Made by a program: the position numbers and the translations under genes. Positions 3,260 through 61,188 of a stretch of DNA of 64,000 nucleotides are shown one piece after another. Location: assembly GCF_000143415.4 (NCBI RefSeq), contig NW_003314279.1, positions 1,627,987 through 1,691,986 on the forward strand, given 5' to 3'. Source of the stretch: Selaginella moellendorffii. Lineage: Eukaryota > Plantae > Lycopodiophyta. The notes under the pieces were generated by a model. The model was not told the DNA's origin. It saw only the letters and a list, made by a program, of their open reading frames with translations, and made no database searches. Each line of letters starts with the position of its first letter. Position 1 is the stretch's first letter.

Positions 3260-3267
3260 TATTTATA
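3260..3267 (-). promoter_or_regulatory. Candidate TATA box of the lectin gene
   Basis: TATAAATA on the minus strand about 80 nt upstream of the ATG at 3182. Confidence 0.5.
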
Positions 3268-23411: not shown

Positions 23412-24609
<1,198 letters not shown>

Positions 24610-37099: not shown

Positions 37100-38217
37100 T
37101 GTAAGCAACTACATTTTTCCATTCTACTTTAATCACTTAACCACACCTCCAACCACTTAAAGGAGTCTTATTCACAACCTCCATAAGTCCCACTCAGGAC
37201 TTGGGGCTTGCTAGCCCCGAGAATGGCATCCATGCCACTCAACTTTTGCACTTAGTCCTAGTGCTCCACATGACCGGTCCCATGACCAACACCCCAAGGC
37301 ACCACCAACATACCAGCCTGTTACGCTAGGCTATGCCCAATCACCTTGGTCACATCGGTGGTCTCACACCTCTTGCATTGCAATCCCGTCTCTCCAAGAC
37401 TGGGCCATCCGTCCATGAGTGGTCATCCCAGATCCACTCTTTAGCATCCTTAGGATGCCCGCAGACATGGGGAATAACCTTCCCCAATATCTCCTTTCTG
37501 GTCCCCACCAAGTCCCTTTCTGTCCTTGGCCGTGTTCGCTAACATTGCCACTGGATCAGGGCCCACAGGCCCGACCACTAAGTCCCACGGTCCTCTGGGA
37601 CTTCCTCACTACACGACTGTATCCTTGGTCACTACACCAGAGGACTACTCCTCTTCCTTTCCACAGTCTGGGCCTTTGGGACAACATTTCGGAACACCGT
37701 GGCCTTACGCAAGCCTCATGGGTACTCTCCCTGCCTTCCGCCTTTGGGTGCTCTAGCCATGGGCTTAGAACGAGGTTCCGTTAAGCCACACCAGGTATCC
37801 AAGTAGGTAGTGCCACCCACACTTAGACTGGGAGCATCGGCCAGTCGATCTCCCGAGGGAACTAGAGCCGGCTCTTGAACACTTCACCAAGCTACCCCGC
37901 TTGTCGGTCCGTATTCACTCTAGTCTTGGACTTCCCAGTGGTCAGTTCATCACCCAACACTGGGTCTAGCCTTCCTGGGCCAAACTGGCCTTTCTTGGCC
38001 AAACTGGCTCTACTATAGTCCTCCCCCTTACTATACTTTTGGAGCTCACCAAACCCCCTAGGGTCTGGGAGATGAACGCTTTGGGCATTCACCCTCTCAG
38101 ACTCAAACTCAAACTCGGACTCAGACTCGGACTTGGACTCGGACTTGGACTCGGACTTAGACTCGGACTCGGACTCGAGCTTGCTCTCAGCCTCGGCCTC
38201 GGTTGCGGCCTCGGTCC

Positions 38218-38266
<49 letters not shown>

Positions 38267-40440
38267 AGTCCCGGTCCCGGTCTCAGTCCCGGTCTCGGTC
38301 TCGACCTCGGACTCCATCTCTGGTCCTTCTCGGACTCCATCTCGGATTCCATCTTGGGTCCATCTCAGACTCCATCTCGGACTCCGTCTCGGACTCCATC
38401 TCGGACTCCATCTTGGGTCCATCTCGGACTCCATCTTGGATTCCATCTCGGGTCCATCTCAGACTCCATCTCGGACTCCGTCACGGACTCGATCTCGGAC
38501 TCCATCTTAGGTCCATCTCGGACTCCATCTCGGACTCCACCTTTGACTCCAACCCGGGTCCATCTTGGACTTCTTTCTTGGACACTTCCACATGTCATGT
38601 GTTGGTCCTTTTGGGTCCCTTTTTGGAGCTTCGCTTATTGCTCGCTTCATGCTCGTTCTTTGAGCACTCCGTTGGGAGTTCCACTCCCGCTCTCAACCTT
38701 TCAAGTTGGAGCCTTTTAGTCCAAACGTGTTACGCTCGTTTGGCTTTTGCTTTGGCCACTACCACGTGGCACCCTTTCAGCTCCACTTTTGGGGCTTAGG
38801 GATTTGTGTCTCACAACTCAAATGAAGTTCGATGTCCTCATTGAATGGTAAACCCTTTTATAAAGTAACACCCGCAAGTATTATCATTTCCATCCTTGGC
38901 ACCCAGCCAATACTTGTCTATGGTTTGACCCCGAAAGCTCACCATGCCTTGTCCATCTTCTAAGGGGCATAGTCTCTCCAACATAGAGACTCATTCGGCC
39001 ACCTGGGGTGGTTTGCTCCCTTTTATTGGTTCAGTTCTCGCTAAACCCGTTAGAGACACCTTCTCTAACTCAATTCTACTACTCATTCTCGAGTAGTCCC
39101 AACTTCTATTGACATAACCAATTCACCTTGGAACTTTTAATTTTGACTTCTCGAAGTCAATTTCTTTGGTGTCTTTGACACCTTTCACTGCACATATTGT
39201 GCAACTTCACTTCCCATCCTAGGAAGCTCCCCACTTGAGGGCGCCATCGTCCTCCTTTCTATTTTAAGACACTTTTGGCACCAAGTTCCAACCATCGTAA
39301 GTTGTGCTAGAGCTATCCACGGCCCTATCCTTTGGTTACTTCGCCGCTCCTTCCCTTGGAGCTTTCACCTTTGCCAACTTGGAGCATTTGGGAATCCATC
39401 CTTGGAAGCACACTTCCTTTCTCACAATCCGTTAGCATCTAACACACTAGTGTTCCATGCCTAACTTTGCCATTTAGATTCCTTTCAATGAACTCTATGG
39501 CCCACACTTTGTGCACTAGTCTTTTGGTTTTATCCATTGATTGTTGCACTGAGCAACANNNNNNNNNNNNNNNNNNNNNNNNNNNNNNNNNNNNNNNNNN
39601 NNNNNNNNNNNNNNNNNNNNNNNNNNNNNNNNNNNNNNNNNNNNNNNNNNNNNNNNNNNNNNNNNNNNNNNNNNNNNNNNNNNNNNNNNNNNNNNNNNNN
39701 NNNNNNNNNNNNNNNNNNNNNNNNNNNNNNNNNNNNNNNNNNNNNNNNNNNNNNNNNNNNNNNNNNNNNNNNNNNNNNNNNNNNNNNNNNNNNNNNNNNN
39801 NNNNNNNGTCACACCATTATCAATAGTTTAAATCAACACTTTGAACTAGGAATTATATTCCTTAACCCAAACAAAGACCTTGTCTTTGTTTAGCCACAAG
39901 ATCATCTGGTGATCTCCTCTTGACCCCTTAACAGATACACTAATAAGAACAAGGTCTTCCAGACCCTTTTAAATTGTTGACTATGACCCCGGGGGCATCC
40001 CCCACACTTGGGCGGTGCGCCCAAGCTAGCCCTTCCAACCAAGGATCCATAGCAACTGAGACTAAGTGTCCCCATCTCATTCACCACGTCTTTAGTGCCT
40101 TTTGCACCAAAGTGTTCAAGTTAGATATGCCGAGCTTTCACTCTAAGCAATCTAACCGTGCATCACGACTCCGAGGCATCCCTCGCTTGGCGGTGTGCCC
40201 AAACCAGTCTCCTCACTAAGAGTCCATGACCACCGAAAAATGAGTGTCCTCATATTCCAAACCATCACCACGCCCTAGTGATTTGGGACTCGAACCCAAG
40301 CACTAGAGGGTTGGGACTCGAACCCAACCTTCGTATATGCATCTACAGATGGCATCGCATAGGATGCCTGGCGTGACTCCCCATGCCGATGCACCAACAT
40401 GTACTTAAAGCGCACTATAGATCACAGCTTAGGAACCTAG
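37100..40440 (-). mobile_element. Family A element, copy A2: 3' LTR (37100-38815) plus internal 3' part, interrupted by element B at 40441
   Basis: LTR termini and arrays as in A1. The internal region is collinear with A1 8200-9503 and breaks at GGAACCTAG|TGTAAGCC, where A1 continues TTCCTCC. Confidence 0.9.
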
Positions 40441-41944
40441 TGTAAGCCATAAATTTTTCCTTTCCACTTTGCCAGCTTACCTCGTCTATCCGTCCAACAT
40501 TGCCTTGGCTTTTGCTAAGTTCCTTTGCCAAGGTTCTCGCCTATGGTACCAGCTCCTACTTGGTTTCAGCTACTCACTGCATGAGCAACGGAGTGTTAGC
40601 CATCCATCCACAGATTCCCAAATCACTCCCAATCCCCCTCCCCGGGTTAGACTGGACTTAAGGTTCCACTACACTCCCCGCAAGCATAAGCAGCCAAGCA
40701 CACCAAGCTTCCAAGTTCTTAACATCCCTTGGTACCACAAGACTTGATCATGGGACCCTCTAAATCCCAAGTCTTGAGTGCAACACTTGTTTCGGGACGC
40801 CGGGGCGAAACACCATGGCCTAGCGGCTCGGTATGGGTACCTCTCGCCCCCCACTTCCNNNNNNNNNNNNNNNNNNNNNNNNNNNNNNNNNNNNNNNNNN
40901 NNNNNNNNNNNNNNNNNNNNNNNNNNNNNNNNNNNNNNNNNNNNNNNNNNNNNNNNNNNNNNNNNNNNNNNNNNNNNNNNNNNNNNNNNNNNNNNNNNNN
41001 NNNNNNNNNNNNNNNNNNNNNNNNNNNNNNNNNNNNNNNNNNNNNNNNNNNNNNNNNNNNNNNNNNNNNNNNNNNNNNNNNNNNNNNNNNNNNNNNNNNN
41101 NNNNNNNNNNNNNNNNNNNNNNNNNNNNNNNNNNNNNNNNNNNNNNNNNNNNNNNNNNNNNNNNNNNNNNNNNNNNNNNNNNNNNNNNNNNNNNNNNNNN
41201 NNNNNNNNNNNNNNNNNNNNNNNNNNNNNNNNNNNNNNNNNNNNNNNNNNNNNNNNNNNNNNNNNNNNNNNNNNNNNNNNNNNNNNNNNNNNNNNNNNNN
41301 NNNNNNNNNNNNNNNNNNNNNNNNNNNNNNNNNNNNNNNNNNNNNNNNNNNNNNNNNNNNNNNNNNNNNNNNNNNNNNNNNNNNNNNNNNNNNNNNNNNN
41401 NNNNNNNNNNNNNNNNNNNNNNNNNNNNNNNNNNNNNNNNNNNNNNNNNNNNNNNNNNNNNNNNNNNNNNNNNNNNNNNNNNNNNNNNNNNNNNNNNNNN
41501 NNNNNNNNNNNNNNNNNNNNNNNNNNNNNNNNNNNNNNNNNNNNNNNNNNNNNNNNNNAGAAGTTCGATGCCCACATCGAATGTCTCTTTTTTATCCTAC
41601 GACTTGTTGACCATGTCTCCGGGGGCATCCCCCCACTTAGCGGTGTGCCTAAGTTAGCCTCCCCGGCCAAGAGCCCATGACAACGGAATATAGGTGTCCC
41701 TATACTCCTCACCTCACCACGCCCTAGTATGGGGTCGGGACTTGAACCCAGCCTTGCTTTACTAGGGGGTTGGGACTCGAACCCAACCTCCGTAGAATAC
41801 GTCTACGGATTCGACATCCCCGCAGAGAGTCGGGCGTAATGCCCTACGCCTGGTCGACCTACCTAACCCATGCTAATTAGTTTACCTTCGGCGCACCTTT
41901 GGGTCCCAACATATGCCATTGCTCAACTTCACCAATTGATACTT

Positions 41945-43495
41945 TTAATTGAACTTTGCATAAGTACATAGAGTTCTGCCTTGCAGAAATTCCTCCACTA
42001 GATCTCGCGTGTTCGCTAGGTTCTCCTCCGGTTCCCATATCGCTTCGTAGTGTGGAAATCCTTTCCACTTCACATAGAACTCTCTCACCTCGTGTCCTTG
42101 TCGCTTGCTCTTGCGCGCATTGAGGATGGCCTTGACTTCGTATTCCTCTTCCCCTTGGATAACCTCAGGTAAAGGCCTTACTTGGTCTTTGCGAAGTGGA
42201 TCCTCAAAGTACGGCTTGAGTAAGTTCACGTGGAACACGGGGTGCATCTTCCCCATCTCTCAAGGAAGTCGGAGACGGTAAGCCACTTTACCGATTCGTG
42301 CCTCAATCTCATAAGGCCCTGCGAACCTGCTTAAGGAACTCAAGATCAATTCATTTATGAAATACATGCATTTTTACCTTTGGGTCAACTTCCGGCTGAT
42401 CCCACTTGGTAGCCTGAGGTTCTTGGTGTTCAACCACACCTTCTCCCCAGCTTGGAACTCTACGTCCCGGCACTTCTGGTTTGTGTACTTGGTTTGCCTT
42501 TGTTGAGCCCGTTCCAAGGAATCCCTCACTAGATTCCAAATGTTAAGTCTTTCCGCTGTGAATGCCTCCACTGCGGATAACTCTCCATGATACTCGGCCA
42601 CGCCGAGTTCCACAGGACCTTCAATAGCTCGCCCATTGATGACTTCCCATGGACTCACCCTGATGCTCGAATGTGGTGAGTTGTTATAACACATTTCCGC
42701 AAGTCCCAAATGACTTACCCAATCGGTCTGGTCTCCTGAGACATAGCATCGCAAATAATCCTCCAGCTGCCTATTCACCCTTTCCGTTTGTCTGTCTATC
42801 AAGAAGTGTTAGTGCCATCAACTTGACTTAATACCCCATACCTGTCTGTGGGTGATAGGCTTTGCTGAATTTCAACTTGGTGCAATACTATTCTAGGAGG
42901 GTTCTCCAGAACCTACTGGTGAAGATTTTATTTTGATCTGAGATAATCTCTTCTGGCCTTCCCCGCACTCGAACCACTTGTTCGAAGAACAGCTTCGCCA
43001 CACCTTCCGCATCCACTTCCGTTGTGGTGGGTATGAAATGTGCCATCTTCGAAAATCGATCCACCACCACGAATATCGCATCGAACCCCTCGCTTGGAAG
43101 GAGTCCCATGATGAAGTCCATCGTAAGACATTTCCACGGACGATCTGGAATTGGGATGCTTTGTAATAAGCCCCCACTAGCCTTAGTCATGGCTTTGACC
43201 TGCTGACATGTTGGACATGTCCTTACATAGTCTTGGACGTCCTTAACCATATCTAGCCAGTGGTACTTCCTCTTGAGTAAGCCCATTGTCTTGGGCACTC
43301 CGCCATGTCCCGCAAAAGGTCCGTCATGACACTCTTCTAAGGCTACCTTCCTTAGTTCCCCTTCCAGAACATACACCCTCGTTTGCTTATAATATATGAG
43401 TCTGTTGCGTTCCGCATAGCCCGTTTTCTCTTCTGTTAGCAACTCACCTCTCTGGTGAGCTTCCCGTGCCTCTAGATTCCTCAGAAACACTTCTT
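41945..43495 (-). pseudogene. Element B integrase plus chromodomain, containing two introns (42796-42841 and 42327-42377)
   Basis: HHCC (ECHD...GH...CPTC), MDF, VVVDRFSK, ISDQ, HPQT|D.QTERVN, KLTQR|FAGPY and a group I-type chromodomain. Contains in-frame stops. Confidence 0.9.
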
Positions 43496-43937
43496 AAGCT
43501 CTATTTCGTTAAAGTGGGAATTGTCATTATCCCACTTGTAAAATAAGGTTTCCAAACCTTTATATAGTATATAAATATAACAAAATTCAACTGCATTGAG
43601 GCACATGCCATTTTATTTTAAACAAGGAAATGTCTACTCAATCACTTCTCCTCCCCCTGCCACTGCTTCACCTCTCTCTTCTCCTTGTCATCGTCGTCCA
43701 ATTTCTTTCCATCCTTTTAATATTGGCTCAGTTGCTCCAAGTCTAGGTGGAGCCCAAGTCCTCATTCAATCTTTACTTTCCCCTTATTAATAAAATAACT
43801 TCGTAGACTTCCAATAACATGCTGTAACACTTCTAGTATAATGCAAATCCTCTTAAAGAATTGTCTTTTAATATTAATACAATGGCATGGAACCCCATGC
43901 CATAATAAGTTACATTTTTAAATAAATACATGCCATC

Positions 43938-46900
43938 TCAGACTGTTATTTTTTGCCTCCAACGCCTATACAATAATCTTGGAATTTCATCACTCTCCAC
44001 ACTATCAGGATTTAAACCCAATAGTAATGCCATCTCTTCTCTAATACGTCCACGCTCATGTTCAGTGGTCGAAGAACCCATCCGGTTGAGCAGATTATGG
44101 AGATGTGGATAGTGCTTGGCTAGACAATATACATGCCATAAATGATGACTGGTGTCTGTCCAATCAAATGGCTTCTGATATACCATTCCATCTGCCATTT
44201 GGTTGATTTCTGCAGCCACCTCCTGGACTGGCTGGTTCTCTATCACCATCGCTTCAAGCCGTTTTGCAAGGTCCCCCAGAACATACGGTTTCTTCTCCCT
44301 AGTTTCCATACTGCAAGAGATGGGATGCACTGCATATGTGTGCGTGTTTGCTGCAGTTTTAATCGGCGAGTCATCGATGATGAGGATTTCACTTGACCTA
44401 GCAGTCCAGTTCATCACTACAGCCTCTGGCTTGACGAAGATGGGCTTGCTACCCCTCACATGGACCATAGTCAAGCAATCCTCCTGCGTTAGGAGAAAGT
44501 CAAATAGTAATATTACTCGCGTCTGATCGTGCATCATCTGTAGCAACGTTAATGCATTGTGGCGCATCATGGATGTCCAAACTCCCAATTGCAAATTGAA
44601 CCCGGCCCTCTGTTTTAAGTGTCGCATGGTCATTATTAGATCCCATAGTTTCTCCCGTGTGATTAATGTGAATCTGTCTCTTTTGACCAACTTGCGGCCG
44701 CAGGCTTTGGAGGGTGCAGTGACATTCGAGGACGAGCCACGCTCATGGGAGAAAAGGACACCGTTCAGATAAAAAACGATACAGTACCTTCGCCGTGACT
44801 CTGAAATGAAATGCGTCAGCATAAAAAATAGTACAAGTCAATTTTACCATCTACAATATTAGCGAATGGTGCTCCCGATGGTCGTTGAGAGGGTTTTGGT
44901 CGAGGAAACGAGGGCGGAAATACTCTCCTCTGCAATGTGGGGTCAATCACATCCGATGACGTGTGGGCACATGCCATTTCAGCTGTAGACTTTGGTACAA
45001 CTGGCTCAACAGTGGCATGTGGTGGTTTCGATGGCGTGTGATCACATGCCATTTCAGCTGGTGCCTCCGTTGGCAAAGTGGACATGACTGAACAGGCAGC
45101 AGGGGCGGTGTAGGGAGGTTCCAACGGCGTGTAGTCAGACGATTGGGCACACGTTGGAAATGAGGATACGACCGGCTCGGCGGCTGGGGCGGCCTCATGC
45201 GGGTCCAATGGCGCCTGGTCACCGTCAATTGGATACGTGGACAAGATTGACTCAGTGGTATGGGCAGCATCAAGTGGAGCGTGGTCAGCTTGCTTGGCGT
45301 TGATATGGATAGTAGCCTCCACCAGCTCTGATGACTCTTGCAGGCAAGTAGAGTCCACTAGCGGATCCATATGCATGTCCAAATATCTCCCTTCGATTGA
45401 GATGGTATCCTCCCTACTGGCTACTAAAAACAAACTCATTAGCACATTGAATCGACTATACTGTATTTACCATCAACTGCTATTGAGGAACTAGGACCGA
45501 TATCACTTGGGTGCACTGCTGATTCTGAAGGATTGGACATACGTTTCGACCCTTGCTTGGCACTATCCTTCCTCGACACTAAAGGCTAGAGTTTGTATCT
45601 TAATTCAACTGAATAATCTCTACTTACCATTTCTTCTGCGAAATGTTAGAAATGGTAAAAGGTTAGGAATGGATGTACTATTATTTACCTGATGGTTTGT
45701 CTTGTATGACCTTCCTCCGCTGCTCTTTGGCCACCTCAGGCTGGCCATCGTTGTCATCATCGTCATCGTCGTTATTGTGATCGTCACCATTGTGAGGACC
45801 ATCCAAGTCCTCTTCGTCCTCCTCTTCTTCGTCCTCCTCTTCTTCGTCCTCCTCTTCTTTGTCCTTCTCTTCATCCTTCTGCTCTTCCTGCTCATTATCT
45901 TTCTCTGGCTCCTCATCCCCCTCCTGCATTTCTTCCATAGGCTGCTCAGGCTGGATGGCTTGTTCTTCCAGGACCATCTTGGGAAAATCATCTGGCCGAG
46001 TCTCCATCTCAAAATACAAGACATCCATAGCCTGTTTTAGTGCTTGACCTAGGACCGTATCCTCACCCGACTGTCTTAACATGGTTTCTGCACGTTCTTG
46101 CACCCTTCGAAGATGACGAGATAAGAAAAACGTGGCCCTAACTTGAAAAGCATCCCTCATCCATTGTACCTCTCCATTGAGATTGGGGAAGGGGAGTCCG
46201 CCATAGGAATCTGAGTCAGGAGGTGGTGACTGGCTCCTTTCACTCAGCCCTTGATCTGCAATGAATGGCATGAGCACACACGCCATAACCGCGAGGCATT
46301 ACCTATCATCTTTTCGTTGCCCTTCTTCCTTTTCGAATCAAACGCCTCTGATCCCGACGACTGTCCAACGTGCTTTCGCTTTTTATGACCACTGTCAGTT
46401 TGAGCTTGGCTGGTGCTTGCCTGTTTTGCCTTTGAAGAAGTGTCTCCTGCAAGGAATGGCATGAGACCACACGCCATTGCAAATATAATTTGTACCTCCT
46501 TTTTTCCTATTGCTTGTCTGTTTGTCCTTCTTCGACGCGCCACCAGTGCGCTTTTCAGTCCTCATGTCTGAATATTCACAACGATCTATAATCAAAATGG
46601 CGTGAGGCCTCACATGACCTTACCTTGTGCAGGTTGTGAGCTCGGCCTAACATCAGTAGCTGTTAACGCCGTTTCAGCATCTGGGGATGGCCACGCTCCT
46701 GCATACAGAGCTTGTGAGATAACATTTAAACTTAAAGTGCGTACTCACCAGGTTCGTAGAGAAGATACTGTTTTTCTTTGGCAACTGTAATTATATGCTC
46801 CATTGAAGTCACCTCTTCAATGGAGTTTGTCACCGCAACACACGGGACACCCTTGAGTAGTGCGGCTCGAAAGAATAGTCCGCCGCAGTTGTACTCGACA

Positions 46901-49544
46901 ACGCATTTGCCCTTGGAGTCACCCGCTATTGCATTGAAGACCCAGCTGAGCATTTTCCATGCTGCACCTGGAGCTTTCTTTGGATTCGAAAGCTCCATAG
47001 CTGTCTTCAGTTCCTCAGGCATGGGTAAATTGACCTCCCTCAGATCAATTCAATCGGCCTTGTTGAACGAAGCTGGGAAGTCACTCCAGTCCCACTCTGC
47101 TGCAGGACCAATAACAAGAGCGAGTGTGAAGATGCGGACATTCGTCGGTATCTTCTTCTTAGCCATTATCCCATGGATCTCCTGCATCTCCTTGCCTTTC
47201 AACCGAGCCTTCACCTCGTTCAAGGCCTTCCAGAACTTGTGATAGGATTCGGAGTCGTAGATCATATAGTGGACTGAAGATTCCACCTCCGCAAGTCCCA
47301 CCATTAAGTCAATGATGGAGCTGACTTCGTCTGCATGAGTGATCTCCTTGTTTGTGAAGTCCATCACACAAAAGATGTTCTTGACCTGCTCATCTCCGCG
47401 GGAAACGATGCTCCTCCACCTTTGATCCTCATCCGAATTCACGTATACCCGGTAAGGTTCTCGATAGGCCTCTGCTGCGGGGTCGAACTGTTTCTGAAGC
47501 TGGCGGTCGACATCCCTCTTAATGAAATTTGGATACTGATCCAACTTCTCAGCTTTACTTTTCGTGGCATCCCGCAGCAGATCGATGAACTTGGGGGCCC
47601 CCTTCACGTCCTCGTCGATGTCTTCATTTGACAACTCCAGCTCTTCCATCATCTCTTGCGTGGTGTCGATGCTCACCCTCTCCATGGCCACTTGCTCGAA
47701 GATCCAATCCTTCAATAGCGCACGAGCTCTCAGAGTCGTGCACAAGTCCTCGTATGTCACAATATGGCCGGGAGTCATTTTGGTCTTGTTGAAGACTACC
47801 TCACCACGTAGAAGAGCATTAGCCACTGTCAGAAGGTCGTCGTCGTCTAGAGACCGCGAGAAACGCAAGGCGTTGAGCTTCAAATCATTGGGCTTCCGGC
47901 CGTCCTCCACACCCATTGAGTTTAGCAACTCCCCGTCATGGTACCTCCTCAGCACATCTACCCATTTGTCAAAAACAACTTTTGTCGCGAGTAGAATGTT
48001 ATGGATGCTGAGTGTGTCATTGACCCCCAATGTTTTCGAGAGAAGACTCGAGAATTCCTGCAATGGAAATGGCGTGAGGCCACATGCTATGCCACATGCT
48101 ATGCCACATGCAACAAGGCTTACCTGCCAGGCGCTAGTTGCTAGTGCACGTCCTTGTCCTGGTTTTTGTGGCTTCTTCAGTTGAACCCAGAGCTTCCATG
48201 TTCGTGCCAATGTCTCGTGCAGACCCGATTTGTAGCACGTTTCTTGCTTGACATTCTGCGCGTGGGAGATGTATATGATAGATTGGAGGGGCGAGTTGCC
48301 TTTTATCAGGCGGACAACTCTTGTCTTGAAGACTTTCTTCACCTCCTCGCCCACCATAATATCCACAACTATCTGTTGCATTGCCAAGCTAGAATGCTGC
48401 CTGGAGACGGCATAGAACCGGATGTTCTGATCGTCCAACACCTTCCTACTGATCAAGTCTGGAAACCTCGTCTCGCCCTTCATTGTTCAGTAGTAGGGGA
48501 TCACGTCTGCGATGTCGGGTGTTACTGGACTTGCCAGCATCTTTTGCTTCAGTTTCTCCACCCACTCATCAGATACTAGCCTGTGGTTGTATTTGCTTTG
48601 GATGTCGATACGGCTCACGTCGATTGTATATACTTTGTTGGAATAGTAACAAGTACTATTATCTGCGACGATTTTTGGTGCCTCTTCTTGCTCTTTCTGC
48701 TCTTTGCGGCTCTTCTTTTTGGTGGGTGTAGTGTTCGAACCCGAGGCAATGGCATCACCGAGTAGCTTCTTTTTTGGAGCAGCAGAGTCGGACGTCGGCT
48801 TGAGCTTGACCACCCTTTTCTGCTTCGGGGTAGTTTCTAGATCGACCCCCTTCCCCTTCGCTTCGCAAACTGGAGGCACTCTCAACGGCTTAATGTTGGA
48901 ATATAGTTTTTGAACATCGCCGTAGGTGAGGTCCGTGGATTCCATGTGATCTTCATAGACCCGCAGCGTCTTTGAAATTGTGGGCCTCCTGGACAACCTC
49001 TCCCTAGCTCCCTCTAGGAATTCCTCATAGCCGCTGCCCCCCTCCGGGAAGCCGCTAGGATGTGCAAGGTGGATCTTGAAGGCGGACGCTGTCTCTACCA
49101 CAAGTGCCAGTCCATATTCTTGCATGGAACTGCATGGAGTGTCTGTCACTTGGATGAGGATCCCCATGCATTCTTTTCTCCCACCATCTGTGTTGTACAG
49201 CATCAGATCCTCGCCTTCCATCCCGAAAGTCTAACTGGTGAGCTCCTCCCCCTTCTCTGCATCCACATTGACAGTGGCTGGAAGAAGAACGCAATTCCTC
49301 GCCTGTTCAGAAATGCACAACAATTAGAGCTGACAGATGAAAAGCTAGCAGCTGGAAATAACGTGAGGCCACACGCCATTCACCACTGCATCAGATGTCT
49401 TGAGGCTGCATCCTAAGATGGCGTGAGGCTACACGCCATCTGTAACCAGATTGCACTCGAGAGCCCAATCGGTGCATGCCAATGTTGCTACTGAATGGCA
49501 TGTGGCCTCATGCCATTTTCTACTTGGCCTAAAAGACTTACCAT
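43938..49544 (-). pseudogene. Transposon cargo gene, 11 exons, ~1,640 aa: ParB/Srx-like domain, degenerate Rossmann methyltransferase-like region, acidic linker, FCP1/NIF HAD phosphatase-like domain
   Basis: Introns at 49303-49541, 48058-48123, 46699-46748, 46586-46623, 46447-46495, 46256-46302, 45636-45688, 45586-45627, ~45421-45470 and 44801-44847 all join in phase. Motifs are YNHRLVSDEWVEKLKQKM...FYAVSRQHSSLA, KCVVEYNCGGLFFRAALLKGVPCVAV, and IVFYLNGVL...LGVWTS...TQEDC...KPIFVK...IIDDSPIK. Three in-frame stops. Confidence 0.75.
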
Positions 49545-49774
49545 TTGAAGCCGAATGGAGGCCGTGACAATCGAGGCCGGACTCGCTGGCGAATGTGCAC
49601 TGTGTGTGTAGCGGATCGTAGCAGCAAGGCTACTCTGCCACTTACAGTTGGAGAGTGGCGCTGAAATCTCCCGGGACGCCAAGTGGGCTGCGTGTGGGTG
49701 GCGGAGTGGGCGGCAAAGTTGGCGGCGAAGTTACAAACTGGGTGTGTCTTGAAGTGGACGCAGATGCACACGAG

Positions 49775-50000
49775 CACGATGCGAGCGCGAGTGTGATGCA
49801 AGCGCGAGTGGACGCCGATGCATACGAGCGCGATGCGAGCGCGAGTGTGATGCAAGCGCGAGTGGACGCCGATGCACACAAGAAACCTGTAGAAAAGGTA
49901 GATGAGCGCGAATGTGAGCGTGATCGTGAGTGGGAGCGCGATGCGAGCGCAAGCGCGAGTGTGATGTGAGCGCGAGCGCGAGTGTGCGAGCGCGAGTACA
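49775..50000. repeat. CpG-rich tandem repeats upstream of the cargo gene
   Basis: The unit GATGCGAGCGCGAGTGTGATGCAAGCGCGAGTGGACGCCGATGCA occurs twice, followed by GAGCGC variants. Confidence 0.85.
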
Positions 50001-51215
50001 AAGCAAAATGCAAAACCTAACCTCACACGCGCGAAATGTCACAACGGTTGGTAATCCCGCCACATCATCATTCCTCGGACTTGGGTGCCACCATTAATTT
50101 CTGGATTGCCACACGCATGCAAGCACGTAAAATCCAAAAGAAATCCGCAACGTCATCATTCCTCGGACTGCATGCACGCGAAATCCAAAAGAAAGATCAT
50201 GATTGGGATATCATTTAATACCCTCGCTATATTTATACCATGCATGATTGGATATTCTAAAGCATCTTGTATTTCCAAAAATGCCAGATGTTCAGCTAAA
50301 TAAAGAAATTCTATCTGTTTCTATTTTTCTCTTAAATCAATATTATAGCGTGTGGGCTCATGCAATTTTGAACCAAAGAAACCCAAAAAACGTTGGACCC
50401 AAAATATTTTGAAAAAACCCAAAAAACCCTAAACATTTTAAACCAAAAAATCCAGGCATCCTGTGGCATTATTCCTTGAATGGCGTGTGGGCGCATGCCA
50501 TTTTCAGGGCCAAATGCTGAATGGAGAAAAATTCCCTTTCAGTGCAAATGCTGCAAGAGGCAGATGCCGAGCACAAAGGACTGTAACTACCTCATATGAC
50601 ACAAATAAACTTTTCTCTATTTGGCAAAGATAAACTTTATAGCGTGTGGGCTCATGCAATTTTGAACCCAAAAAATGCACCAAAAAATTCTCGGCGTCAT
50701 CTGGCGTTATCTCTTGAATGGCGTGGGGCCGCATGCCATTTTCAGGGGCACATAGGAGTATATTTCTAAAATATTCTGATATGCCCGAGATTTTTTTGAG
50801 TTTTCTGGAGATCCAACCGTTAGATCGCAACTAGATTTTACAGAATGGTATACAATGTCTTTCTTGATGACCCTGCAAAGAAGCATCTCGATCAGACACC
50901 ACATGAGACCACACGAGCCTTACAATGTTTCAGGGGCATTTGCCATAGATCCGACCGTTATTTTGCTCCAAGATTTTACAGTTTGGTGTGCATTGACCTT
51001 TCCATCGACACTGCAAAGGAACATCACAATCAGATGTGGGATCACAAAAAACTAACTTCACTAACTCTGGTTTCACCAAGATCTACGTAATGAGTTATGA
51101 AATGAAAGGACCCTCTCTATTGAAATGTGTTTATGGTCCTAGGGGCATTATGACATATCAAAGGATTTTGCATCAAGTTCTGTATTTGCATGTTTATCAA
51201 GCTACTGAATTGCTA

Positions 51216-51239
51216 AACCCTAAACCCTAAACCCTAAAC
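51216..51239. repeat. Telo-box-like (AAACCCT)3 inside the transposon intergenic region
   Basis: AAACCCTAAACCCTAAACCCTAAA. Confidence 0.7.
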
Positions 51240-52036
51240 ATGTGGCAAATGCTGCGTGAAGAAAGATGCCCTTTCTGGGCAAATGCTGTAAGAGGCAGAT
51301 GCCGAGCAGATGTATCTCAGGCTAGCGAAGGGGACAAACAAAAGCTAGCTATAAACATGACAGGATGCAAATAGATTACTAGGCTGGTCCTACGAAAATC
51401 AAAAACCATAATTAAAAACATTGAAAATGCAAAAAGAAAGGTTTATAATATTTTTGAATTTTAAGCAACCAAAGGAATGTAAGTAGGGCATGTGTTTGTA
51501 AGTTTAAAAATGCCTCAACCACTTAAATTCCCAAGTAAATAAAGCTGTTTCTATTTTTGGTACAGGTAAACTTTATAGCGTGTGGGCTCATGCAATTTTG
51601 AACCCAAAAATGCACCAAAAAATGCTCGACTAGCATTATTCTTTGAATGGCGTGTGGCCTTATATTGCCATAAATGGACGTACACACACAGCATAATTAT
51701 TCCTTTACACGGCAAATAATCTTGGCGCGGATCGTTGACATGGCATAGCAAAGTTCGAATCACTGACATGGCACAGCTGGATTGAGGCAAGGACATGATG
51801 TGACAAAGTTCAACCTCTGACAGCAAAGTCTAGAAGCTACTCAGTTTGAAATTTGTCAGAGGAATCATAAAATCTGGTTTGTCAGAGGATTTGATGTGAC
51901 GTTCAAGCGTGTGTTATTTTTGAATTCTCGAACTCATTCCTAGGTCTATCATTTTTGTGCGCCGTGTTCTTGGTTCCGCTGAGCGCAGTGAGCGCTGCTT
52001 GTGTAAGCGGCGTTGTGGGCTGTGGTTTATGCGTCT

Positions 52037-52170
52037 ACGAGCGGTTGCGGCATTGCGAGCGCCATTGCGAGCGGCAGTTTATGCGAGTGGCAGTTTGTGC
52101 GAGTGGCGCTACGAGCAGTTGCGGTGTTGCGAGCGGCGCTACTAGTAGTTGCGGTGTTGCGAGCGGCACT
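52037..52170. repeat. CpG-rich GCGAGCGGC repeats upstream of the transposase
   Basis: Repeated TGCGAGCGGC/TGCGAGTGGC units. Confidence 0.75.
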
Positions 52171-52533
52171 GTCTTTGGTGTGGCTACCGCTTCCTCTTGA
52201 TATTCGGCACTTGTGCTTCCTGGTATGTTCACCATGGAATGGCTTAGGACCACATTTAGAAATGGCATGAGGCCACATGCCATCTTGGGCCCTTGCAATT
52301 TCATGGCTAGCATATTGTCATGTATGTTTTTACTTGCCTACAGCTGTGTGTATATCAAGATGGCATGAGGCCTCATGCCAATTTTGTGAATGCGAAATTT
52401 CACGTGGGTGTCAATAGCATGTTTGAATAATGGCATGTGGCCTCATGCTATTGAGGTTGTTTGGTATGTTATGATTTAGGCCATTCTCCAATCATTTTTT
52501 GTATGGTCTTAACTTCTTTTCTGCACTTTCAGA

Positions 52534-55500
52534 ATGGCCTTCAGGGTTGGGGAAAAGGTTTACATTTTGAATGGTGGGAAGAGAGTTGCAAAAGGGACCC
52601 TTGTGTCTATGGATCGGAACTTTGTTATACACTGTCAAAGGCTTGGGGAAGGCAATGCTGCTGTATCAGTAGAGACTGTCTTCGATGGGAATGTGGTCGC
52701 TATTGAACGAGGAGAGATGGTTGTCGGGGTAAATGTTGTTGTTGCCTTGAAAAATCTTCAGAAGAAAGCAGATGTTGGGGACAGCGCAAGTGCGACGCAT
52801 GTTCCCTCCGTGGATCTTAAGAACCGTGCTACATGGATTCAGGCGAAGGTGTTTCTAAACAACCCCGAGGGGGAGGTGGTAGCTGAGGGCTTAGCCACAG
52901 TTGTCAATCCAAGAGATGCGGTTGCTAATCAAGAATTGGGCTGGGATGATATTGGAGTTGCGATTTTAGAGGTTGTTGACACAGAAAAAAACAGTCTGAC
53001 CATTGGAAGCATTGTGCGGTGGAAATTGAGGCACTTAGTGTTTGAGAATGTGAAAGATTCAAAATCAAACACCACTACAACTGATGACAGAACATCTCTT
53101 CATGGGAAAAGAAAGTACACCTTCCTAAAGCGCAGCCAAAGGGATCTGAGCAACGAACCGAAAAGGCAGAAAATGGCGATGGAGGTTCGAATGGTCTCGA
53201 CAGTTGCTTGTTGCAAGAGGAGGTGCTGTCAACATGCTGATTGGGATGCTATTGAAGAGGAGAGAGCAAGATACAAGACATTGTCCTGGAAGGCAGCTCG
53301 CAATTTTGTGTATGAGGCATTACGGTCATCTGTTGATGCTTCAGAACATCAGGTGGGGGGCATGGTCTTCCAGAGGGGTTTGGTCTGCATGAAGGGATGG
53401 AGAATCATTTATGGAGTCCCTCGAACCACATTCTACAGAATCAAAACTGAGTTTGAGGAACAAAGGGTTCAACAGGCAGTCCATGGGAATGACGGTACGC
53501 ACAAAACCAGGGGTCATGTTGTATATGGAGAAGCAATCTTCAAGAGGTTTGTTGAGACATGTAGCGAGCAGCAACCACATAAAACCCGCCTCTTGGAAGA
53601 TGGAACACGAGACACCCAACGAGTTCTCCCTTCTATGTATACCAAGGGGGCCATATTGGAAGATGTGAATCGGGAACTCCAGAGTAATGGCTACAGGAAG
53701 CTGAGCCAATCTAGATTTAGTAGATTGTGGAGCAACAGGTTCAGGGATGTGAGTATAGGAAAGTACTCCAGCTTTTCAAAGTGTGACGAGTGCACTACTA
53801 TCAAAGAATCGAAGAACTACTATCGAAGAATTCTTGCAGCGCTCAAGAGCGAGAGACGTTGGTTAGAAGGCGGCTCGACCACAACATCGAGTAGAGAAGC
53901 TGCAGGACTGCATATTATCATAACAGGATTCTCTCCATGGAGAGACCTGACTCTTACCTCTGCATCATCCACGACAAAATGGACCAGAAAAAGACATGCT
54001 TACCTCGACTCAATCCTGCCCCCAAGGCAATCTCTTCATCCATGCAGCTGCCTGTGTCTCTGTTTGGCATAATCGCTCATGGGCATGGTGCCCAGAACTA
54101 TGGGAACTTCTTTGTACCTCTATGGGGTGGCGGGGGTGCAAACATGATGATTGCGTCCCTAGCAAAACACTTAAGGTCTTTGCAAAGTGCGCAGACTGAG
54201 CTGAACGGCCAACCCTTGCATAAGGCCCTTGTCGATCGAACCCCATACAGGGTTCAGCTGGAGGAGGAGCAAAGGCTTGCAGTATCACGTGGGGCCCCAT
54301 GCCATCCCAGTGAATATGTTGGCCGTCAGATTGTAGGGTTATCACGTGAGGCCTCATGCCATTCCGACGAGGCTGGTCGCCCGGTGAATGCACAGCCTCA
54401 TCCAAACGAAGCAGAATCTCAAGGAAGTTCTTGCGGCCGATGTGGCCTTCCACCCCATCTTCTGCTCCAAACAGACAATGCTGGCAGTGAGAACAAAAAC
54501 ATGTACGTCTTCGCGTACTTGGCGATGCTTGTTGCCAAAGGCATATTTGAAACGGTTACACTTGGCTTTCTCATGGTTGGGCACACTCATGAAGACGTCG
54601 ATGCCATGTTCAGTCACCTGGCAGAGTCCCTCCGGCGATCCAATGTCCTCACCCTCCCACAACTCTACGATGAATTCCAAAATTGCATCAAAGGCACTGT
54701 TGAAGCTGCACTTTTGACAGAGGTTCCAGACTTTAAGGGGTTTGTAAGAGGCTATATCAGGGACGGATCCGAAACGCTGATTGGCCACTCCAAGCCTCTT
54801 CAGTTTCATTTCAGCATGTGTGACGGTGCTCCAGTGATGAGGTACAAGATGAGAGAATAGGACACAGTGTGGCTGCCAGTGGACGGCATTGAACTCTTCA
54901 AGAGAGATCCCATAACTGAGGAATCTATGATTCCTCAGGGTTCCCCACGGCCGATGCACCCGGATGGACTCAAAGACCAGGAAAGTATAGTGGCCGGGAT
55001 TAGACAGCATATTGCCTTCTGGAAGAGGGGGTTGGTGTTTGGTGGAGAATCCTATTTTCAGAGGTCCAAGCCTTTGCTCGAATACTGGGAGAAGATTATA
55101 TCTGCTATCCAAAATGGGCCGGTTGTATATGAAGAATTGGAAGAGTCCTTTTGGCCAGAACCCAGAGCACCAGATAGTAGCGGAACAATGTCCTCTGGAA
55201 ATGCAGTGACAGATAACGATGTTGAGGATCACTATTGTGGGCCGAGGAACAAGAAGCCGGATTCAGCATTCAATCCAGTACAGGTCTGCAAAGGAATGGT
55301 CGTGCTTGTCAGACCCAGTAATAAAAAACAAATGATATGGGTGGGGCGCTACATCACTGATGCAGAGGAGGATGCGGAAACTAACTCCTTCAATGTAACT
55401 GTGGAGTGGTTCAAGCCAAGTTCCAGATATACGAAGGATTGCCTAGAAAAGAGATGGGTGCTGAATCCAAGGGATCCCAGCATGAGCATATCGGTGGATA

Positions 55501-55610
55501 ATGTTGTGCATGGTTGGATGCGGAAGCAGAGTGCCACCATCACCTTGCCAGACCATGCAAGAGATGCAGCAAGAGCATTCATAACCCGGGTTCAAGGTGA
55601 GATTCATTAA
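52534..55610 (+). pseudogene. DDE/DDD transposase (Sola-like), inactivated
   Basis: CCKRRCC, VCMKGWRIIYG, FSKCDEC, IIHDKMDQ, LLLQTDNAGSENKN, GFLMVGHTHEDVDAMFS. Frameshift near 53810-53850, TAG near 53892 and TAG at 54858-54860. Confidence 0.85.
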
Positions 55611-57241
55611 TATTCCTTTACTAAGTTTCTAATGTATTTTATTTCAAGGTGAACAATCCGAATCTGAATCAGAGGAGGCGTGATGGCATGTGGCCTTACG
55701 CCATTCCTAGGTGAGATGATACAAATAACAAGTATAAATTCTTAGTTGTTCTAGCAAATCTTACTTAAAGTTCAAGGTGAACAAGCCGAATATGAATTCA
55801 TCGGATTGTTATAACAAATTGCGAGGTGATGGTATGAGGCGATACGCCATTTGAGAGTGGTAGCCATTCCTATATGAGGTGAGTGAAATATTTATTAGAA
55901 ATACCTCATTCAATTGTGCACTTCTAAGTCTTGGTCCACTCAATACTGTTTGCATGTTTCTATTTTAATTCTTTCTCTAAAATGTTATTTAGCATGTGGC
56001 TTCATGCCATTGCTCTCCACAATCATGCATTGAATTTTTCTATCCTTGCATAATACTTCTCCATATATATAGCATGTGCGCACATGTGATATGGTTCATT
56101 AGGCCTGATATAGTGTGTGAGGTAAAACAAAGATGATGTGACATATGCATTTACCAATCACACGTGCATAAATCTAATAATATGGCATGTGGCCCATATT
56201 AATGGCACATAAACCCATATTGTGGGCTTACGTGCTTTATGTACCATCATTCCCTTGCAGCGTGTGTGTTGGTTTCCTTGTATAACACAACGAACTCCAT
56301 ATTTTAGGGTGAAGAGCGTTCTCATGGCAAGCACAAAATCTGTAAGTGAGGCAGAAAAGGAGACAGAGAAGGAGATAGGTGAAGATGTAGAATATATAAG
56401 TCTTCCAAACTCCCCGTACTATACTCCAGGTGATCATTTTTCTGAACAAATGGCAACATTAACAACTATCGAGAACGCCCTAGTAACGTCAAAGACAACA
56501 ATCCAAAGCAAAACAACTGACCCAGAGAAGGATGATAGTACCGCTGAGAGTACCAAAAAGGAGGTGTCCACTAGCGCTTAGGCTTATAATAGCGTGTGCC
56601 CTCATGCCATTTACTTGATCACCAAATACCTTTTTCCCTTTGCATTAGTATATCTTAATACCGGTCTGAGAAATAGAATGGCATGTGCCCTCAGGCCTTT
56701 TACTAAATCACCTTTGAAAGAAATGCAAGCCTTTATGTCGTAAAAAAAAGGTACTAGAGAAATTCCTTAATAATATGAATGTTATTTAGTTTCATGAAAA
56801 TACACTAAGGGTCAAATGAGTTAAATGACTTCTCCAGACTAGCAATGCCTCTTGCTACACCTTCACAATTAGATTCGTTAGAAAAAGATAACATTGAATA
56901 ATATCTAAATGTTCTCACCATTAAGTTATATGTCTGGCTAATAGGAATAACGTTCATCTTGGAAAGCTCACCATACGCTCAATGAACAAACAAATAGTGT
57001 GTGCGCACATGCCATCGCTCTTCTTTAGCTTCAGATTCGGCTTGTTCACCTTGACAATGAGATTTATTATACAACCAGATGGACACAGTCTGGACATAAA
57101 GTCACCGCGCTAGTCACCATGCCCCAGATATGTCTAGCCCCTGGACAAAAAACATATAATTTCACGTCATTTTCAAATACTTGAAAATTTGTACCTAGTC
57201 CCATTTTACTGAATAAATCCCACTTTAACGAAATAGAGCTT

Positions 57242-60200
57242 TCTTGTGCTAGACCATCGTTCTCATATGCAGTCCACACATCATCCCAAAAGGTAGCTGT
57301 CGCGTTGGATATTGCCAACCTCAAGCTCACTTTTCGACTTAGCGCATCTGCCATGATGTTGCTCTTCCCAGGCTTGTACAGAATCTCGCAATCAAACTCG
57401 GCCAAAGCATTGGCCCACCGACCTTGTTTTCCCCTCAGGTCGGGCTGTGACAAGAAGTGTTTCGTTGCCACATTGTCCGTGTAAACCTTGAAGTGTCTTC
57501 CAAGGTAGTGTCGCCACTCCTTGAGTGCCTTGACCACCACAAACAATTCCTTCTCATGGGCAAGCCACTTCCTTTGAGCCTTGTCCAACTTCTTCCAGAA
57601 GAACGCTACTGGATGGTTGTCTTGCTTCAAAACTGCGCCTAACGCAAAGTCTAAAGCATCCGTTTCTACCTCAAAGTCCTTACCAAAGTCTGGTAACGCC
57701 AACACGGGAGCCTTCTTCAACTTCCCCTTGAGGTGGACGAATGCTGACTCGCATTTTGCTGTCCATACCATCTTCCCTTTTCCCGTTTGGTCCGTTAAGG
57801 GCAAGGTTACTCTCGAATAGTGTCTGATAAACTTTCGATAGTAATTGCATAGCCCCAAGAATGCCCTTCACTCGTGTACATTCGATGGTCGCTCCCAATC
57901 CTGGATCGCTTGGACCTTCTCAGGGTCCACCTTGAGCCCGTCCTTGCCCACCACGTGCCCGAGAAACTTTACCTCTTGCTGAGCAAAGTCACATTTGCTC
58001 TCTTTAGCATACAGCTGGTGTTCCCTTAATTTCTCAAACACCTTCATCAAGTGTTTGGCATGCTCTTCTAGTGTTTCGCTATAGATTAGGATGTCATCAA
58101 TATAGACGACCACAAAGTGTTCTAGATAGGGTACAAAGATATGGTTCATCAACGCCGAAAATGTTGCCGGCGCATTGCATAGCCCGAAGGGCATCACCAA
58201 AAACTCGAAGCTCCCATACCTCGTTCGACAGGTTGTCTTCTCGACATCTTCCTCTGCTACTCTGATCTGGTAGTATCCTGACCTTAGGTCAATCCTCGAG
58301 AAGTATTTTGCCTTTCCCAACCTATCAAACAGGTCCTCAATCCTTGGCAAAGGGTACTTGTTCTTCTTTGTATATTTGTTGAACAACCGGTAGTCTATGC
58401 ACATACGCATAGATCCATCTTTCTTTTTCACAAATAGCACCGGCGCCCCATACGGCAATTTGCTCAACCTAACATACCCTTTGTCCACCAACTCCTCTAG
58501 TTGGCGCTTGAGCTTCGCGAGTTCTTTTTTGTTCAAACGATAGGGTGGACGAACCACTGCCTCAGCACCCTCGACTAGCACAATCTTATGTTCTATTGGT
58601 CGTGCGGGGGGCAACCCCGCCGGTAGCTCCTCCGGCATGGTATCCCGGAATTGGTCCAACACCCGCTGGATCACTAAAGGTACTTCTTCCGTTCCTGTCT
58701 TTTTGTCACTTCTCACCGAGAGTAAGCACAAAAATGCAGCCTTTGTCCCTTTAGTGAGTTGTCCTCTCGTGGACACAAGGTTTAGGCACGAATCTTTGGC
58801 TTTGCATTGCCCTAACTTTAGATCCTGGGCCTCCACCCTGGATCTTCTTCCTTGGGCATTTGCTAGTACCACAAGGTTCCTACCTTGTTCATGCAGGGCT
58901 ACCACGAACCGATTGAACCAATCCATCCCGAAGATCATGTCAAATCCCGCCATGTCCAACACAGTGAAATCCATGTCTACTTTCCAAGTCCCTACTTCGA
59001 CTCTCGCTTGTCAAAGTAACTCATTGGTGCTTTGGCTACCTTGAACAAACTCTATAGTCCTTGGTTCGCCCAACCGCTGCACCGTTAGTCCGGCTTGCTG
59101 GACTATGTCTGCAGCCACAAAATTATCCGAAGCACCCGTGTCAATAAGGATCTTAACAAAGCTACCTTCGAGCTTCCCTCAGAGGGCTAGTAGATGTCGC
59201 AAACGACTCTCTACCAAAGTTGCTCATGTAATAAGTAGCTTTGATCTAGGGACTGGATCACATACCTCATTTTGGACTTCACCCGACTTGATGGCCATAT
59301 TGGCTCTGGCCTTCTTCGGGTAGGGACATTCCCTCGAAAAGTGTCCGCTTCACTGCAGTTGTAGCATATGTTGTTTCCTACGCTGCTAAACGACTTGACC
59401 TTTTTATCCGTGGGTTTGTCTCTTTTTGCTTGACTCCCCCATGTACTTGCTCGCTGGCCACCGGATTTGCCTTTCCGGAACCCCGAGGACTCATTCTTAG
59501 ATAAACTCTTCTTGAATTTCCCCTTGCTATATGTTCCCCTCGGTTTGGCCCCTTTGTGAAACGTGGACCCCGACCCCGTGGCGTTCCCTTTTCGCAGGTT
59601 ATCGTTGAAATGCATCACCTCACCGCGAGCCCAGGTTTGCAAACCTGATATGAAGGCATGGAACGCATCCATATCCCCCATGTCCGTGACAAGTATCCTC
59701 TTTGCCATGAACCCATTCACATACTCCTAGATGGTTCCAGTCTACTTTAGCCTACTCAGCTCATCTCTTAGATGCAGAGTGGCATTCGGAGGAACGTATG
59801 TTGTGCGGATCCTCGCCTTCATCATGTCCCAAGTGGCCACCGATCCTTCGTTGGCCTTCGTTGTTCTCCACCAAGACTTGGCATTATCTGCCAAGTATGG
59901 TTTTGCACATGGGACCTTCTCCGAGCTCGGTAATCGCAACGCTCGGAAGTAGTCCTTCATATCGTAAAACCAATCCTCCACCACCTTATAGTCATTCACT
60001 CCCTTGAAGACCGGTGGGGGCTTTGGTTTGTACTTAGGAACTGCCTGAGGGACTGATTCTACTTCGGTCTGTTCGACCTTGTTTGGTTCTGCCTCAGTCC
60101 CTACTGAAGGGTCTGCACCTTTTGCGCTGCCAGCATCCGCAGTCTTTCGCTTTTTCTTCCGCTTCTCGTCACGCTTTAGTTTGCGTACTAGAGTCTCTAG

Positions 60201-60413
60201 CAGGGCATTGGTCTGTGCCAACTGTCCTTCTAGAACATTCAATCGAGCCTTGGACAACCGAACCTCGCCACCAGACTCCTGCTTGGAAGTTTCCTCACTG
60301 GAGTCATCCTCATGCAAGGATTCCTCATCCATAGCCTCTTGTTTGACCGGAGGCTCCAGCTCTGGCGGAGGTTTCGTCTCCGCCTTGGTTCGTTTGTGCC
60401 CCACCTTTGCCAT
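57242..60413 (-). pseudogene. Element B gag-PR-RT-RNase H
   Basis: KPPPVFKG...EDWFYDM gag, CYNC knuckle, [73 protein letters not shown]. Contains stops and frameshifts. Confidence 0.93.
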
Positions 60414-61188
60414 CTCCCAGCAATCCGCCTCTATCCTTCGCTAGAACTGAGGAAAAGGCTTCGATACCAAATTGTAAGCCACAAATTTTTCCTTTCCACT
60501 TTGCCAGCTTACCTCGTCTATCCGTCCAACACTGCTTTGGCTTTTGCTAAGTTCCCTTGCCAAGGTTCTTGCCTATGGTACCAGCTCCTACTTGGTTTCA
60601 GCTACTCACTGCACGAGCAACGGAGTGTTAGCCATCCATCCACGGATTCCCAAATCACTCCCAATCCCCCTCCCCGGGTTAGACTGAACTTAAGGTTCGG
60701 CTACACTCCCCGCAAGCACAAGCAGCCAAGCACACCAAGCTTCCAGGTTCCTAACATCTTGGTACCACAAGACTTGATCATGGGACCCTCTAAATCCCAA
60801 GTCTTGAGTGCAACACTTGCTTCGAGACGCCGGGGTGAAACACCGTGGCCTAGTGGCCCGGTATGGGTACCTCTACCCCCCCACTTCCATCCCGAAGGAA
60901 GGCCCAAGCCCCTAGGAAGGGCAAGGACCAATGAGCCGCATGGTACTCAAGTGGGGCACCACTCCACATGAGCCGGGAGCACCGCAATTGGTTTCCCTTT
61001 CGGGAGTGGGAGCTGCTCTTGAGCACTTCCTTGGATGGCCCCTCCGGCACCAACCAAGTCCATGCTCACTCCCACCCAAGGCCCCTCGGTCCCAGTCTCA
61101 ACCTCAAGTCGGTTTGGAAGCCCCATTGGAGAGTCCCTTCAAAACTGGTTCCTGGACCTCACTATCCCTACTATACTTTTGGAACCCC

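Follow-up and report, generated by a model that had tools for sequence, protein, structure and literature searches.

Reverse transcription is a textbook route of intron loss, and LTR elements are copied from packaged RNA. In the spliced LTR elements that have been described, introns lie at domain boundaries or in leaders and set the Gag:Pol ratio, as far as the accessible portions of this literature go. The initial annotation of the locus studied here had noted splicing in Ogre and in Copia-type elements, and the available parts of four papers bear this out (PMC6317226, PMC4408406, PMC5580714 and PMC3735527). According to the accessible sections of PMC3735527, BARE produces a capped, polyadenylated RNA that is translated, is partly spliced and cannot be copied. 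A second, uncapped and non-polyadenylated pool from another start site is unspliced and packaged, and these sections report that DNA copied from the spliced transcripts was not found.

The host considered here, Selaginella moellendorffii, carries SM1-Galahad, described by Novikov et al. 2012 (PMC3350952). In the accessible text of that paper, SM1-Galahad is an element of approximately 7.5 kb with LTRs of more than 1 kb (1076/1146) that contain poly-G tracts of 11–25 bp, a 13-bp tRNA-Met primer binding site (PBS) and a position beside Galadriel in the reverse transcriptase (RT) tree. The family, defined by more than 80% nucleotide identity to a consensus, has hundreds of copies that are 95% alike on average, none of them intact. 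A 3885-bp gag-pol ORF stops in the integrase core without reaching a chromodomain; the authors treated as separate two ORFs that follow, one of 316 bp and a final one of 309 bp that encodes a group I chromodomain. No target-site duplication is given there, and a word search of the text returned neither 'intron' nor 'splic'. The same source describes a closely related, intact and abundant sister, SM2-Galahad, with one unbroken 4731-bp ORF that continues through the chromodomain, and SM-Tcn1, whose LTRs are 440 bp long, whose gag and pol occupy separate ORFs and which lacks a tRNA PBS. We found no other paper naming SM1-Galahad in the open literature searched.

A chromovirus with a split integrase gene

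The window, by which we mean the whole stretch of 64,000 nucleotides that was analysed, contains a Ty3/gypsy chromovirus on the minus strand, as defined by its gag–protease–RT–RNase H–integrase order, C-terminal chromodomain, paired LTRs and PBS. Pfam matches run in the order gag, protease, RT and RNase H, followed 13.7 kb on by the integrase zinc finger, core and chromodomain. The gag (CCHC)–protease–RT–RNase H part (57242..60413) is damaged in this copy by one frameshift and a number of stops. The PBS (60457..60469) is 13 nt long, lies 3 nt past the 5′ LTR and is of a type that we take to be tRNA-Met, with 11 of 13 letters fitting the reference motif. The 3′ LTR (40441..41911) has TG..CA ends and an N gap at 40859–41558, giving a length of at least approximately 1,060 nt, and the stretch upstream of it, where a polypurine tract would lie, is only weakly purine-rich in this copy. 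The 5′ LTR is a remnant (60473..61188) that ends in CA; another repeat family cuts off its upstream part, which makes the target-site duplication unreadable in this copy. Paired, near-identical LTRs with a PBS had been claimed initially; the pair and the PBS stand, whereas near-identity does not, as the LTRs are 94.5% alike over the comparable 418 nt. A nested DNA transposon (43496..57241; 13.7 kb, 24-bp terminal inverted repeats, 4-bp target duplication) splits the element between RNase H and integrase. Its plus strand bears an ORF that matches DUF7869; several other long ORFs in it lack Pfam matches. Because 21 DNA contigs pass from 43495 directly into sequence beyond the far end of this transposon, it is private to the copy studied. 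This copy is dead: gag, pol and integrase all carry stops, the reading frame shifts at the CCHC knuckle of gag, and the transposon interrupts the element. It is of middling age and no near-identical recent insertion.

The integrase is encoded in three exons on the minus strand. Exon 1 (42842..43495) specifies the HHCC zinc finger and two catalytic Asp residues (Pfam Integrase_H2C2 and rve; E=3.3e-27 to Ty3 integrase 7q5b_A). The catalytic Glu, the remaining core and the start of the C-terminal domain are in exon 2 (42378..42795), which includes a 318-nt ATG-to-stop stretch. Exon 3 (41945..42326) carries the GPY/F motif and the chromodomain (Pfam Chromo PF00385, E=6e-15), and from its ATG at 42256 it runs for 309 nt plus stop. 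In this copy, exons 1 and 3 each have one premature stop, near 42890 and 42262, respectively. Between the exons lie intron 1 (42796..42841; 46 nt, phase 1, with CTAAC 14 nt upstream of the acceptor) and intron 2 (42327..42377; 51 nt in this copy, phase 2), both with GT..AG ends. The initial annotation had placed two GT-AG inserts of 46 and 51 nt on this strand, and their coordinates, ends and lengths are as it gave them.

Both introns interrupt conserved parts of the protein, as had been proposed. Intron 1 falls within HPQT-D-x-QTER and parts the second Asp from the catalytic Glu, and intron 2 lies immediately upstream of the GPY/F motif, separating this motif and the chromodomain from the core. 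Retention would disrupt reading in each case, again as first suggested, with an in-frame stop four codons into intron 1 and a stop right at the start of intron 2. Removing intron 1 leaves exactly 35 residues from the second Asp to the Glu of QTER; D,D(35)E is the catalytic spacing of retroviral integrases. This Glu aligns with QSER of Ty3 integrase, although the match is weak (E=0.006), and of the homologues with HP[QE][TS] in two sets, 94 of 100 and 94 of 109 have the motif unbroken as far as the Glu. Close protein relatives were absent from our searches: the best was 55% alike, another search gave at most 47% among 150, and a third gave none. As read from the sequence, an integrase made with intron 1 retained would lack the third catalytic residue. 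A complete integrase would thus require removal of intron 1, and the GPY/F motif and chromodomain would require removal of intron 2 as well; the earlier proposal that integrase is made only from spliced RNA agrees with this prediction.

We aligned 16 reference Ty3/gypsy polyproteins with a spliced protein-to-DNA aligner, supplying no coordinates. Intron 1 was chosen exactly in 13 of the 16 alignments and intron 2 in 10, and the alternative choices mostly had one end in common with the predicted intron. Permitting introns raised the score for all 16 homologues (+125–168), which are intronless references hand-picked from 120 relatives as single-pol. Splice sites were scored with a matrix built from the 20 introns of a host gene in the window. 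Among the 261 GT sites of the element's coding sequence, the donor of intron 1 comes first and that of intron 2 third; among its 421 AG sites, their acceptors come 29th and 8th, respectively. The GC content of the introns is 0.39 and 0.29, versus 0.48–0.50 in exons. The host-like size proposed initially applies to intron 2, which falls within the 47–74 nt of the 20 host introns, whereas intron 1 is 1 nt under the shortest. Both fit the U2 spliceosomal type in having GT-AG ends, a host-like size, splice signals like those of the host and a high AT content. A test for Introners, introns made by transposons, showed that introns 1 and 2 are unrelated to each other and that neither has a second copy in the window; their boundary repeats are 2 and 4 nt, compared with 1–6 nt for host introns. 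Neither a target duplication nor nearby DNA was supported as their source within the window.

No recurring intron was found in the gag–RNase H region among the 16 spliced alignments, where the best count was 2 of 16. We rejected a candidate third intron at the gag/protease junction (59265–59211, 55 nt), which was chosen by no homologue and whose removal leaves the frames unjoined; the true frame change is upstream, at the CCHC knuckle. Its donor is strong (rank 6), and this look-alike indicates that a strong donor alone is insufficient.

The gene that supplied the scoring matrix encodes a PDR-type ABC transporter (16867–22422, minus strand) with 20 introns of 47–74 nt. Its best match is a S. 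moellendorffii protein (91% over the query and 95–99% in clean exons), which places the host among the spikemosses. The gene is probably a pseudogene, as it contains a stop and a frameshift. Another repeat occurs three times in the window (10813–13454, 37100–38815 and 61186–64000) in copies that are approximately 82% alike and contain 12-nt tandem arrays; one of them abuts and cuts off the 5′ LTR described above. Pieces that are 72–86% like the chromoviral LTR (8883–9504, 39813–40441 and 41604–41810) adjoin the 3′ LTR and recur 31 kb away, which suggests older related LTRs and nesting. The window also contains ELP3-like fragments (23400–24615, minus strand) with N-terminal and GNAT domains, apparently missing most of the middle and with telomere-like boxes upstream, a Laminin-G-like ORF (2–607, plus strand) and an ORF with a B-lectin domain (2280–3398, minus strand).

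Spliced RNA and intron-bearing DNA

We examined sequencing data for RNA joints at the predicted introns. One run (X15), whose kind, 'RNA?', is a tool guess, looks like a transcriptome: it gives 4 records of depth 3–11 where DNA gives 17,271, and on a second stretch it covers 2 of 30 bins. In record 11, 42795 abuts 42842, so that exactly intron 1 (42796–42841) is missing. In record 9, 42324 is joined to 42376; the 51 nt left out correspond to intron 2, offset by the two letters common to its borders. These are the only X15 records that bridge a junction, and both are spliced. The integrase region offers 279 possible GT..AG segments of 40–75 nt, and the RNA joints match both predicted introns exactly. 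In a raw RNA run from another study (X21), the bin depths in one orientation are 18, 54, 32, 30 and 16; these sum to 150 nt and fit one read, covering 42692–42795 and 42842–42887 with intron 1 skipped. Raw RNA reads on the integrase numbered five in X21 and one in X22, in runs sampled at approximately 12%. One X21 and one X22 read enter intron 2 by 17 nt and then differ from the copy studied, at the point where the family's introns diverge; these could reflect retained intron 2, in which case unspliced molecules also occur, or contaminating DNA. The occurrence of splicing at both introns, as distinct from its rate, is therefore shown, on thin RNA support: two contigs of one run and, for intron 1, also one raw read. 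The RNA joints that the initial annotation had proposed looking for are present at the lengths it gave, 46 and 51 nt, and the possibility it had raised that the inserts are never spliced does not hold for either intron.

A second, unrelated gypsy-like pol lies 13 kb away on the minus strand (25100–29350), with protease, RT, RNase H and integrase, no chromodomain match and no LTR pair seen. In its RT and RNase H, three or more introns are predicted, and another is spliced, giving four or more in total. The predicted introns, which have GT-AG ends, are 27767–27719 (49 nt, in RT, 14 of 16 alignments), 27283–27235 (49 nt, 15 of 16) and 27044–27003 (42 nt, 6 of 16), with a less certain one at 26630–26517 (6 of 16); the intron spliced in an X15 contig is 28600–28544 (57 nt, GT-AG). 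All of these are on the minus strand. The element is low-copy (171 DNA contigs) and is known here as intron-bearing, which does not imply mobility with introns. Two further runs, X16 and X18, gave nothing on this element, which counts neither way. A further LTR pair, approximately 71% alike and with a PBS-like stretch (29250–33550), is inserted at its upstream end.

To compare copies of the chromovirus, we used a DNA run (X1), in which 17,271 contigs map to 41900–43500, mostly 90–99% alike (3,689 contigs at 99% or more, 6,013 at 95–99%, 6,086 at 90–95% and 1,483 below 90%). Summed depth, which is no true copy number, is 6.1e5 and 7.2e5 in the intron bins and 5.2e5–1.26e6 in exon bins away from the ends. 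The introns make up 97 of 1,601 nt, and all four indels listed in X1 fall inside them (42358, 42360, 42819 and 42821); loose contig ends are concentrated around the centre of intron 2. This confinement indicates that the intron interiors vary in length and sequence while the exons keep theirs. The base behind the odd residue after HPQTD differs in most family contigs, so this residue is private to the copy studied. Both introns, in contrast to the private inserts that the initial annotation had considered as an alternative, are family-wide: X1 DNA covers both, and the consensus of SM1-Galahad breaks alike.

Intronless copies, which had also been proposed as something to look for, left no trace among the X1 joints listed: none of these 15, out of 22, skips an intron (depths 109–208). 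Long unique X1 contigs have depths of 105–156, the low-copy second element has approximately 500, and three of the eight long DNA contigs listed lie under the lowest listed joint (109). At such depths about one intronless copy could escape detection, compared with a family of hundreds or more, and contigs tend to drop rare variants. We also looked for the same intron position elsewhere. A related-locus search of metagenome contigs, which hold no known Selaginella DNA, gave no match. A search for A-(Y/F)-H-P-Q-T with G|GTA after it matched 67 loci in metagenomes and one viral locus; eight of these 68 are retroelement integrases, and all eight have 1-nt deletions, not introns. These collections, too, hold no known Selaginella DNA and therefore say little about conservation of the intron position.

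The anatomy of the family resembles that of SM1-Galahad closely. From the ATG to the stop in intron 1 we measured 3836 nt, compared with an ORF of 3885 bp in SM1-Galahad, and two stretches of 318 and 309 nt without stops correspond to its ORFs of 316 and 309 bp. The LTR, at least approximately 1,060 nt, compares with 1076/1146, the PBS is 13 nt in both, and the 17,271 X1 contigs at mostly 90–99% identity compare with its copy number. Poly-G tracts of 11–25 bp were not found in the readable parts of the LTR, part of which is in the N gap. The studied family is thus likely to be SM1-Galahad, matched by anatomy and not by sequence. Because the SM1-Galahad consensus was drawn from many copies, it is an independent sign that the breaks are family-wide. 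An initial lead to a lycophyte Tcn1-like element did not hold, as LTR size, ORF layout and PBS all differ from SM-Tcn1 and fit SM1-Galahad, and we rejected membership of the Tcn1 clade. Since the ORF of SM2-Galahad is unbroken, the simpler reading is that the introns were gained in SM1-Galahad after its split from an intronless SM2-Galahad; intron loss in SM2-Galahad via spliced RNA is a possible alternative.

Two probable RNA pools and competing explanations

Considering that the introns are kept across a high-copy LTR family, the unspliced RNA is what gets reverse-transcribed, and the initial proposal that the element moved through RNA yet kept its introns is supported by this retention. We think it probable that this chromovirus family, likely SM1-Galahad, whose host-type introns are spliced from RNA and kept in DNA, maintains two RNA pools. 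The unspliced RNA would be the form that is copied; it would encode Gag through RNase H and an integrase cut short ahead of the third catalytic residue, so that integrase with all its catalytic residues would come from spliced RNA only. The two forms may be held apart as in barley BARE, with an unspliced pool packaged and a capped pool translated. If a spliced RNA were packaged, an intronless, self-sufficient copy would result, and such loss would be one-way. The near absence of intronless copies suggests that the RNAs are sorted. By analogy with BARE, the unspliced RNA may be packaged selectively. Splicing may act as a regulated 'switch' on integration, as suggested initially.

Several other explanations compete with that of two RNA pools. 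Sorting might not exist at all, if short introns are rarely spliced where the element moves, so that nearly all the RNA in particles would be unspliced anyway, and if a burst from a few masters gave rise to the family, leaving too little time for intronless copies to accumulate. This idea is consistent with the size of intron 1, which at 46 nt is shorter than any of the 20 host introns, with the rank of its acceptor (29 of 421) and with the two of three informative raw reads that retain an intron. However, both junction-bridging contigs and the sole raw read over intron 1 are spliced, and the two donors come first and third within the element. Moreover, the diversity of the family (90–99% bands, and a mean of 95% in the accessible text of PMC3350952) suggests many rounds of copying, and we consider this explanation unlikely. 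An equally unlikely account, or one very slightly more so, is that the family is effectively non-autonomous: the inserts crippled the integrase, SM2-Galahad integrase acts in trans and splicing is incidental. A helper of this kind is plausible in that SM2-Galahad is closely related, intact and abundant while no intact SM1-Galahad copy was found, according to the accessible text of PMC3350952, and BARE2 parasitises BARE1, according to that of PMC3735527. Against it stand the two separate inserts, both removed precisely and in frame, the preserved D,D(35)E spacing, GPY/F and chromodomain, and the confinement of the indels listed in X1 to introns; the genome RNA must be unspliced under this account too.

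Copying at the DNA level, by segmental duplication, gene conversion or carriage on a DNA transposon, would let introns bypass reverse transcription. The target-site duplication is unreadable in this copy and none is given in the available text of PMC3350952, and a DNA transposon is indeed present in this copy. That transposon does not enclose the element but is nested in it, and other copies lack it, and hundreds of copies have LTRs, a PBS and full gag-pol; we regard DNA-level copying as very improbable. Private inserts in a decayed copy, with GT-AG ends by chance, would fit the other lesions of this copy, but are refuted by the family-wide presence of the inserts in DNA, by their exact splicing in RNA and by the same breaks in the published consensus.

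A more far-reaching form of the two-pool explanation is tentative, and we doubt it more than we favour it. Here, host splicing would be a three-way switch on integration: unspliced RNA would give a catalytically dead integrase, removal of intron 1 alone an active core that lacks GPY/F and the chromodomain, and removal of both introns a chromatin-targeting enzyme. The particle would separate RNAs that differ by approximately 100 nt in their 3′ half, and more than one Selaginella gypsy lineage would gain and keep introns in pol. If this is true, Selaginella gypsy elements are a live setting for intron gain in reverse-transcribed genes.

Apart from this switch, with two introns kept in a catalytic enzyme by hundreds of copies, message and genome differ only by two tiny internal segments. 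The long-standing question of which RNA an LTR element translates and which it packages can thus be addressed in a very simple setting, where a sister family without introns, present in the same genome, serves as the control. The family would also offer two datable intron gains. ORF-based tools would call such families dead or non-autonomous, as with SM1-Galahad.

Comparison with known spliced retroelements

Our open-literature search found no report of introns inside the integrase core of an LTR element; Repbase, REXdb, theses and subscription papers were outside the search. The family itself is probably known, and its gene structure is unusual and probably unrecognised. The following comparisons draw on the accessible portions of the papers cited. 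Two described retroelement groups resemble this one at a greater distance. Foamy viruses make an integrase-containing Pol from spliced RNA and keep their genome RNA unspliced; their splice, however, removes gag to give a subgenomic RNA, and pol has no intron (PMC7828637). Penelope-like elements retain their spliceosomal introns when they retrotranspose, and one such intron has been inferred in a Selaginella element, but they are non-LTR elements that lack a DDE integrase and replicate in another mode (PMC8557442).

Evade and other Arabidopsis Ty1/copia elements likewise keep major-spliceosome introns with host-like signals, although these centre on protease and yield a short Gag mRNA; no conserved splicing was found in Arabidopsis gypsy elements (PMC5580714). 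Barley BARE1, also Ty1/copia, shares a single ORF, a short host-like intron and, probably, translation of spliced RNA with the element studied here. In BARE1, splicing turns pol off for Gag, whereas here splicing would complete an enzyme and the unspliced RNA would be a defective message (PMC3735527). Ogre, of the Ty3/gypsy Tat lineage, also needs partial splicing for its whole polyprotein and keeps its intron, a single one of approximately 274 bp on average at the domain boundary between the gag–protease and RT ORFs (PMC6317226 and PMC4408406). An intron of that type was not found in the studied element, where at best two of 16 spliced alignments agreed on one; instead, this chromovirus has two introns of 46–51 nt within one enzyme, one of them between catalytic residues. 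The element works like Ogre and BARE, and belongs to neither.
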